Of a stretch of DNA of 42,656 nucleotides, positions 8,972 to 9,248 are shown piece by piece; within the stretch, counting starts at the first letter, position 1, and each line of letters starts with the position of its first letter. The stretch is from an uncultured Gammaproteobacteria bacterium (GTDB lineage Bacteria; Cyanobacteriota; Vampirovibrionia; LMEP-6097). The stretch covers positions 1-42,656 of the forward strand of contig CAYQSL010000001.1 in NCBI GenBank assembly GCA_964420165.1, given 5' to 3'. Below the pieces are notes generated by a model. That model made no database searches and was not told the origin of the DNA. It saw only the letters and a list, made by a program, of their open reading frames with translations. The position numbers were made by a program, and so were the translations under genes.

Positions 8972-9000
8972 TCTTAAAAAGCTGCTTAAAAAAGCAGCTG
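8972..9000 (-). terminator. Rho-independent terminator/attenuator hairpin on the minus strand
   Basis: The arms AGCTGCTT (8980-8987) and AAGCAGCT (8992-8999) are perfectly complementary with a 4-nt loop. On the minus strand the hairpin is followed by TTTTT (8979-8975). On the plus strand it is followed by GGAG, so it is minus-specific. Confidence 0.7.
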
Positions 9001-9190
9001 GAGTTTAGTAAGCCGTCTCAAAGAGCAGCCATGGCATCTTTAGCCCCGAAGGGCTTGGACATAATGCCATCCTCCAGCCGAATAAAAATTCTTACTGTTG
9101 GATGACACCTGTATTTTGGTCCAGGAGTCCAAACCACTTTGAGAGAGGTTACTAAGCCTCAAAGCAATACTAAGTTAATATTGCTTCGCC
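9001..9190 (-). promoter_or_regulatory. Structured ~190-nt 5' leader RNA (riboswitch-like) upstream of the 8946->7429 operon
   Basis: A ~23-bp closing helix forms between 9137-9160 and 9001-9023. Internal hairpins include AGCCC-UUCG-GGGCU and AUGGCAU/AUGCCAU, and there is a 5' hairpin (9163-9169 with 9179-9185). A possible -10 TAGAAT lies at 9200-9195. The leader ends in the terminator, only ~25 nt from the RBS of 8644..8946. Confidence 0.5.
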
Positions 9191-9248
9191 ATATATTCTA
9201 ACTAAGTTTTGAGATGTTTGCCTAAAAACCCTTATAATTAATTACAAG

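Follow-up and report, generated by a model that had tools for sequence, protein, structure and literature searches.

What kind of RNA precedes the pair of small secreted-protein genes found on a contig from an uncultured member of the Vampirovibrionia, and does it control them? The question is raised by a 42,656-nt stretch of DNA (positions 1 to 42,656 of contig CAYQSL010000001.1, assembly GCA_964420165.1; 'the window' throughout), where the minus strand from 9189 to 8976 gives, from its sequence and folding, a strongly structured leader RNA of ~214–215 nt. The element is a distant member of the Brt RNA family, and probably (a probability of roughly 0.6) serves as a leader-type transcription attenuator of the mRNA that encodes the secreted paralogues, with anti-antiterminator, antiterminator and terminator helices. 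A 229-nt stretch on the gene strand folds at -83.3 kcal/mol, with z = -5.42 against 200 dinucleotide shuffles, and the plus strand of the same stretch folds more weakly (z = -3.83). An initial annotation, made from the letters and their open reading frames (ORFs), had placed a structured minus-strand leader directly upstream of an operon of secreted paralogues, and this is upheld both by the folding (z of -5.4) and by the covariation described below.

Homologues identified by BLAST are found in a second genome of the same genus (G001), with the same gene context, and in a genome of another genus (G020), where the element lies before a DUF5655 gene. The genome to which the window belongs, a 63%-complete metagenome-assembled genome (MAG), contains one copy by BLAST. 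A covariance model of the core (R1) yields full-length matches in 15 of the 30 genomes of the window's family, with no more than three in any genome. A second covariance model (R2) identifies 93 elements. The window scores 145.8 bits with R2, a score it has by construction as part of the seed; the Bartonella sequences lie outside the seed. Across the class, R2 finds the element in 26 of 151 genomes at 1–9 copies per genome, and the distribution is patchy, with representatives in 15/29 and 8/14 genomes of two families and in 0/31 and 0/32 of two others.

A spaced pattern of invariant blocks, with 24 specified bases, was also run on species-representative genomes and returned 103 stretches. Judged by record names, these derive from Caenarcaniphilales/Vampirovibrionia, Rickettsiales and other alphaproteobacterial MAGs, Bradyrhizobium, Nitrobacter, Xanthobacteraceae, Hyphomicrobium, Sphingomonas, Micavibrio, Bartonella (both chromosomes and plasmid pVbh) and a Chthoniobacteraceae genome. 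R2 does not pick up two of them, chance matches that lie in a Streptomyces tRNA and in a coding region of Ferruginibacter. In the Streptomyces locus (L089) the pattern falls on the D-loop/anticodon-arm region of the tRNA, and the pattern alone is therefore not specific. Elements of the family are present in Caenarcaniphilales and Vampirovibrionales, in many Alphaproteobacteria, and in one Chthoniobacteraceae MAG (Verrucomicrobiota-type by record name).

The Bartonella loci provide the link to a published RNA. With R2 they score 41–65 bits (E ~1e-7 to 1e-12) over model positions 1–165. The 29-nt BrtProbe (Table S6, PMC5387305) matches these loci exactly, directly after the 3' strand of the helix that closes the core (P-c), and this exact match of a published Northern probe identifies the Bartonella members of the family as the Brt RNAs of the literature. 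The ORFs downstream of them start like XRE helix-turn-helix (HTH) proteins, judged from N-terminal sequence; Brt1–9 and their downstream trp (XRE-HTH) genes have been described by Tu et al. 2016 (PMC5387305) and in a review (PMC8070961). The Brt RNAs were published as Bartonella-specific. The present results contradict this restriction to one genus: the Brt RNAs belong to a wider, multi-phylum family, of which the window element is a distant member. The two share a covariance model over their full length and the spaced invariant motifs, as well as a layout consisting of an own promoter, a ~200-nt structured RNA, a 3' hairpin and a promoter-less gene, in multiple copies. However, the window element belongs to another phylum and precedes genes for small secreted proteins where the Brt RNAs precede XRE regulators, and its 3' platform is a canonical U-tailed terminator where Brt has a conserved GC-rich 3' end. 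A small XRE-HTH (Trp) gene downstream is a feature of the Bartonella loci, but is absent at the window and does not hold for the wider family. Brt copies can be clustered or in tandem, with four R2 matches within 8 kb in Bartonella sp. TT121SHDZB (L080) and two matches 395 nt apart in another locus (L111).

P-c, an arm of two helices (P3/P4) and a hairpin (Hb) together make up the core of the RNA, a three-way junction, which is preceded by a 5' domain that includes a small hairpin (Ha) and its tail (Table 1). The long-range pairing consists of two pseudoknot-type contacts between the 5' hairpin-plus-tail and the 3' junction. In PK1 the loop of Ha (9155–9149) pairs with the junction strand J (9011–9005), and in PK2 the tail that follows Ha (9142–9137) pairs with the loop of Hb (9023–9018). 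The initial annotation had read this pairing as a closing helix of ~23 bp; the pairing is real, but it is composed of PK1 and PK2 and is not a simple closing helix. The hairpin capped by a UUCG loop that it described is present at 9054–9043, as is the clean terminator with a U tract, which was placed ~25 nt before the ribosome-binding site (RBS) and lies 26 nt before the Shine–Dalgarno (SD) sequence.

The initial annotation had asked for covariation in homologues as a check, and this is found. In the alignment of R1 hits 98.2% of cells pair, and compensatory (double) changes occur in 25 of 27 pairs; in a control with the partner columns slid, only ~30–42% of cells pair. Among 90 distinct copies (the R2 alignment, A7), 39 of 42 pairs covary, including those of both pseudoknots, which are absent from the model. 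Readings of individual helices were tested on alignments not fitted to the helix in question. P-c pairs in 98.7% of cells in A7, with covariation in 5/7 pairs, and in 228/271 cells of the unfitted R1 alignment. For the stem of Hb the corresponding values are 89.6%, 4/4 pairs and 117/148 cells, while all pairs of P3 (6/6) and P4 (4/4) covary. The stem of Ha, to which the R1 alignment was not fitted, pairs in 148/156 cells there and in 93.5% of those of A7. The pseudoknots, neither of which is in the model of the alignment, pair in 83.4% (PK1, 7/7 pairs covarying) and 75% (PK2, every pair covarying) of cells.

The same contacts emerge without an alignment. In 78 of the 90 copies both recognition strands (J and the loop of Hb) have perfect Watson–Crick complements upstream, in the same order and 11–15 nt apart; taken singly, such a complement exists between J and the loop of Ha in 83/90 copies and for the loop of Hb in 84/90. 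The sequences of the recognition strands differ from copy to copy. The upstream partner of the Hb loop likewise varies in sequence between copies, with its complementarity, its order and its distance of 11–15 nt from the Ha loop site maintained. The internal loop of P3, AUGUCCA/UAAAG, is invariant from Bartonella to Vampirovibrionia, across all phyla found. Compensatory changes are visible by eye in every helix when the window, G001 and G020 are compared, although RNAalifold on three sequences did not recover the long-range pairing, owing to misalignment; it was superseded by hand-set structures and the two covariance models. In the 5' half, the loop of hairpin P2 (9130–9122) is able to pair with a segment S2 (9111–9104), forming either an H-type pseudoknot or alternative hairpins. 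Covariation of S2 was judged by eye from the alignments, and the three-dimensional arrangement of P2 and S2 given here is presumptive.

These features bear on whether the element functions as RNA at all. An imperfect inverted repeat (I1; 19 nt, 84% complementary) and the several copies per genome in relatives would suit a repeat that acts at the level of DNA, such as a miniature inverted-repeat transposable element (MITE) or a terminal inverted repeat. This explanation is very improbable. The window's genome has a single copy, the copies share structure and not sequence, and their orientation relative to promoter, terminator and downstream ORF is fixed. In addition, G-U pairs are common and specific to one strand, and the structure therefore belongs to the sense RNA strand.

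The fold also contains helices that compete with one another. A strand upstream of the junction (9107–9094) pairs locally with the 5' side of P-c, and in the window this anti-strand hairpin has an energy of -21.4 kcal/mol (z = -4.9). Among 88 distinct copies, 84 can form a hairpin of this kind, which sequesters the P-c 5' strand and in many cases the 5' strand of P3 too. An equal number, 84 of 88, have a second hairpin after the core that draws part of its sequence from the 3' strand of P-c; in the window's subgroup it is the U-tailed terminator, whose G-C pairs are largely the shared ones. At four loci of a family designated f1 (L033, L024, L025 and L035) the hairpin overlapping P-c lacks a U tail, and a second, canonical terminator follows it, giving a platform of two hairpins.

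Because the anti-strand, P-c and the terminator compete in these 84 of 88 copies, attenuation is the preferred reading of the element, at the probability given above. Under this proposal the promoter at 9224–9195 would start a ~214-nt RNA that forms the 5' leader of the two-paralogue mRNA. Three helices are mutually exclusive here: the anti-strand hairpin, in which the 5' strand of P-c is the partner, P-c, and the terminator stem, which needs the final bases on the 3' side of P-c. Early formation of the anti-strand hairpin would keep P-c open and let the terminator form, so that transcription would end at 8976 with a stable short RNA as product. If instead the junction closes, the terminator would lose its G-C base and polymerase would read into the operon. 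Termination is likely to be the default state. Both the default state and the direction of the switch are proposals; in a relative, Bartonella Brt1, attenuation has been shown. As trigger, an RNA, a protein and a small molecule are all conceivable. The initial annotation had likewise proposed an antiterminator/terminator switch, and the exclusive arrangement is borne out, but the conserved competitor is P-c and not the segment GGCUGCU. The pairing of that segment (9031–9025) with the 3' arm of the terminator as an antiterminator is not kept in G001, read by eye.

A switch with a terminating default fits what is known of Brt. These RNAs accumulate to high levels, with little transcription of the downstream trp genes (PMC5387305), and deletion of the 3' stem-loop of Brt1 raises transcription of trp1 (review PMC8070961). 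The gene arrangement at the window is also consistent with attenuation. As only 26 nt separate the terminator from the SD sequence, there is no room for a separate promoter of the operon, whose layout is the same in G001. Transcription probably starts near 9189, downstream of a promoter-like site called as a consensus-level match only. The promoter block is almost unchanged in G001, and a -10-like hexamer lies 6–9 nt ahead of the 5' hairpin in every copy of the family. A same-strand ORF begins 22–178 nt after the core in all 22 f1 copies whose locus extends past the core; two further f1 copies, whose loci end at a contig edge just after the core, were left out of this count.

Several observations weigh against attenuation at the window. 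In the nested minimum-energy fold (-83.3 kcal/mol) it is the terminator that forms, whereas the fold with P-c enforced has -73.0 kcal/mol, the energy of the pseudoknots being uncounted in this value. Because of this, read-through may be rare or absent. In the modelled energies the terminator and P-c states are nevertheless plausibly close. The overlap between P-c and the terminator in the window amounts to only 3 nt. Moreover, the c4 RNA of phage P1, to which the element is compared below, is an antisense RNA that acts on a downstream site (a2b2), and the window copy has no such site. Finally, the genes downstream of the family are heterogeneous. They encode small secreted proteins, DUF5655 proteins, an N6_N4 DNA methylase, a PD-(D/E)XK nuclease and a TRL protein, as well as XRE-like regulators (judged from sequence), pilin-like proteins and proteins without an assigned function, and they have no common functional theme.

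The nearest architectural counterpart is the immunity region of phage P1. The comparison used the annotated immI region and the Rfam alignments C4 (RF01695) and c4-a1b1 (RF03163) of clan CL00128. In P1 the 5' part of immI starts with a promoter and a first hairpin. A second hairpin, of 4 bp, has an 8-nt loop that is site a1, and is followed by a tail with site b1 and by a spacer. The c4 RNA follows, with a closing stem, a short hairpin, a large-loop hairpin (b') and a 7-nt junction strand (a'), and after c4 the sites a2 and b2 lie over the RBS of icd. RNase P is known to cut c4 on the 5' side of its closing stem. The order and topology of these parts in P1/P7 c4 agree part for part with those of the window element, including a hairpin before a1 that is equivalent to the 5'-terminal hairpin H0. 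As in c4, a junction strand and a hairpin loop are complementary to two upstream sites, the first of which lies in the loop of a small hairpin. The likeness is one of architecture only, since there is no model match in either direction. Neither RF01695 nor RF03163 matches at E<=10 in the window (8900–9300), RF01695 has no match in the window's genome, and R2 gives phage P1 c4 only 6 bits, which is not a meaningful score. Two parts of the window leader, an anti-strand and an intrinsic terminator in competition with P-c, have no described counterpart in c4, and the invariant internal loop of P3 is not in the c4 consensus.

A second downstream pair of target sites over the RBS, at +23 and +37, is present in 26 of 84 copies, but not in the window copy or those closely related to it. 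Nearly all of the 26 are Rhizobiales-type loci, and one is from Bartonella. Complete P1-like arrangements of a1b1, c4 and a2b2 are found at L042, L043, L047, L048 and ~20 further Rhizobiales-type loci, on chromosomes of Bradyrhizobium, Nitrobacter, Ancylobacter and their relatives.

The 3' half of the element also resembles sRNA-Xcc1 (RF02221), known from integron, island and prophage small RNAs (sRNAs) of Xanthomonas/Xylella. The model is 87 nt long and comprises a closing stem, a hairpin whose internal loop is A-rich, a second hairpin and a junction strand; it aligns with the 3' junction in members of the family at 41, 34.8 and 29.8 bits, below the gathering score of 53. It was through these sub-threshold matches that the 3' half was recognised as a three-way junction. 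RF02221 does not match the window copy at E<=10 and has no match in the window's genome. Unlike the window element, the model has no 5' domain, anti-strand or terminator switch, and the RNA is described as trans-acting. On the Bartonella plasmid pVbh an sRNA-Xcc1 match of 48.3 bits (L052:5309-5397, minus strand) and a Brt copy stand ~600 nt apart on opposite strands, and junction-only and full-leader forms are therefore found side by side. The model of IsrK (RF01394, Salmonella Gifsy-1) matches phage P1 (L142:231-312) at 35 bits over a1b1, the following hairpin and a U run. Because of this match, IsrK looks like the 5' two-hairpin domain of a c4-type module ending at a terminator; it has no match to the window and no junction domain.

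The resemblance to c4 and sRNA-Xcc1 raises a competing explanation, in which the element is a stand-alone antisense-type sRNA. Here a ~214-nt RNA with a constitutive terminator would use its two recognition strands to act in trans, and any read-through would be incidental. The order and topology of parts, the sRNA-Xcc1 matches on the junction of relatives, and the Rhizobiales subgroup, whose second target-site pair follows the logic of c4, all argue for such a function, as do the abundant, short Brt RNAs, which reportedly act in trans on badA (PMC5387305). However, a2b2-like targets in trans are not enriched in the window's genome or for the orthologue in G001, where counts do not exceed those of a reversed-pattern control. 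Both recognition strands already have partners in cis, and the downstream genes have no room for a promoter of their own. The conserved competition between anti-strand, P-c and terminator would also be superfluous for a simple sRNA terminator. An antisense function is consequently rather unlikely, although it is the strongest competitor to attenuation.

The fold invites comparison with riboswitches. The element combines an aptamer-like, covarying fold with an expression platform of mutually exclusive helices, as riboswitches in general do, but a coherent theme among the controlled genes is lacking. In a new ligand-sensing class, a small molecule or ion bound at the internal loop or junction would stabilise the junction, so that the gene would be on in the presence of ligand. 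Consistent with this, the loop AUGUCCA/UAAAG is non-Watson–Crick and stays invariant across phyla while all helices drift, and the pseudoknotted fold is complex. In addition, a Brt1 reporter reportedly responds to heme, rising as heme fell, with no effect of temperature or pH (review PMC8070961). However, the heme result is indirect and comes from a review only, and the downstream genes (secreted proteins, XRE regulators, DNA methylase, nucleases, pilins) have no metabolic or transport theme. A riboswitch is a possibility but not the best reading, because the RNAs that resemble the element most closely are Brt, an attenuator/sRNA, and c4 and Xcc1, which are of antisense type; a new ligand-sensing class is judged unlikely, more so than an antisense RNA. 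A broader version would be an orphan riboswitch-like class in at least three phyla, in which internal loop and junction bind a small molecule or universal factor that flips the three-layer switch, with the c4-type antisense RNAs known from phages and integrons as relatives built on the same scaffold. We consider this idea equally doubtful; heme, which has been suggested for Brt1, and RNase P or tRNA-like recognition are options for the factor.

The element does not belong to any catalogued riboswitch class; the initial annotation had thought a novel ligand class conceivable. Rfam 15 at gathering thresholds gives no match across the whole window and only tRNAs in ten related loci; at E<=10, the region 8900–9300 has four weak, chance-level matches to unrelated sRNA and long non-coding RNA models and none to M-box or other riboswitch models. 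The initial annotation had also noted short strings like those of the Mg2+-sensing M-box (ykoK leader, RF00380) and considered a metal-responsive function linked to nearby efflux genes. Apart from these strings, what could speak for such a leader is a Cus-like resistance-nodulation-division (RND) efflux cluster on the minus strand at 1–3526, with OEP, HlyD_D23 (CusB-like) and ACR_tran genes, which runs off the start of the window. It lies 5 kb from the leader with plus-strand genes in between, and the two are unlinked. The M-box is likewise a structured leader ending in a terminator, but its model does not match and its fold is a different one. No Mg2+ transport genes lie downstream of the window element, and none of the downstream genes scanned against Pfam matched a transporter family. 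With downstream genes as heterogeneous as those of this family, a metal-sensing leader is the least credible of all the explanations, and the idea can be set aside.

The features of the leader and its operon are collected in Table 1.

Table 1. Predicted features of the leader RNA and the adjoining operon (window coordinates)
Feature	Position	Strand	Description and basis
Promoter-like site	9195..9224	-	-35 TAGGCA, 18-nt spacer, -10 TAGAAT; 9/12 consensus positions
H0, 5'-terminal hairpin	9161..9187	-	11-bp stem; folding, with an A-U to G-C compensatory change in G001 and G020
Ha, hairpin	9145..9160	-	4-bp stem GAGG/CCUC, 8-nt loop; loop (9155-9149) is the a1-like site and 5' strand of PK1
b1-like tail site	9137..9142	-	5' strand of PK2, partner is the Hb loop; complementarity across copies
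P2 hairpin	9104..9136	-	9136-9133 with 9120-9117; four covarying pairs
Anti-P-c strand (putative anti-antiterminator)	9094..9107	-	local pairing with 5' strands of P-c and P3
P-c 5' strand (junction-closing helix, putative antiterminator)	9072..9078	-	partner 9003-8997
P3/P4 arm	9031..9070	-	internal loop AUGUCCA (9062-9056) and UAAAG (9042-9038); UUCG-capped P4 9054-9043
Hb hairpin	9012..9029	-	loop 9023-9018 is the b'-like site and 3' strand of PK2
J, junction strand	9005..9011	-	a'-like site, 3' strand of PK1
P-c 3' strand	8997..9003	-	final 3 nt double as base of terminator stem
Intrinsic terminator	8976..8999	-	8-bp stem 8999-8992 with 8987-8980, UUUU loop, U tract
Putatively gated operon	8308..8957	-	SD 8957-8952; 100-aa ORF 8946-8644 (AUG 8946); 103-aa ORF 8619-8308

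The two ORFs of the operon encode tandem paralogous small signal-peptide proteins that belong to no Pfam family. Related operons, in G001 and at another locus (L029), encode small secreted proteins, one of them of the TRL family, followed by a TM2-domain protein. On the other side of the leader, a divergent gene (9249–9623, plus strand) encodes a 124-aa signal-peptide protein with repeated G-N-R/K-I motifs. Its promoter-like site (9209–9238, plus strand; 11/12 matches) lies back to back with that of the leader, and both this ORF and the divergent arrangement are conserved in G001. Further along, a 1419-aa ORF (9817–14076, plus strand) has a weak match to Schlafen-group-3 helicases (E = 3e-4, below the cutoff) and may be a defence-type or island gene.

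With these relatives, Brt changes from a curiosity confined to Bartonella, where it gates a virulence regulator, into a large and elaborate RNA family that is missing from Rfam and whose plan is the same as that of the classic c4 immunity RNA of phage P1. The covariation-backed fold, with its three-way junction, two pseudoknots and three competing helices, gives clear targets for mutation. In the window, the leader is the likely route of control for a promoter-less operon of small secreted proteins.

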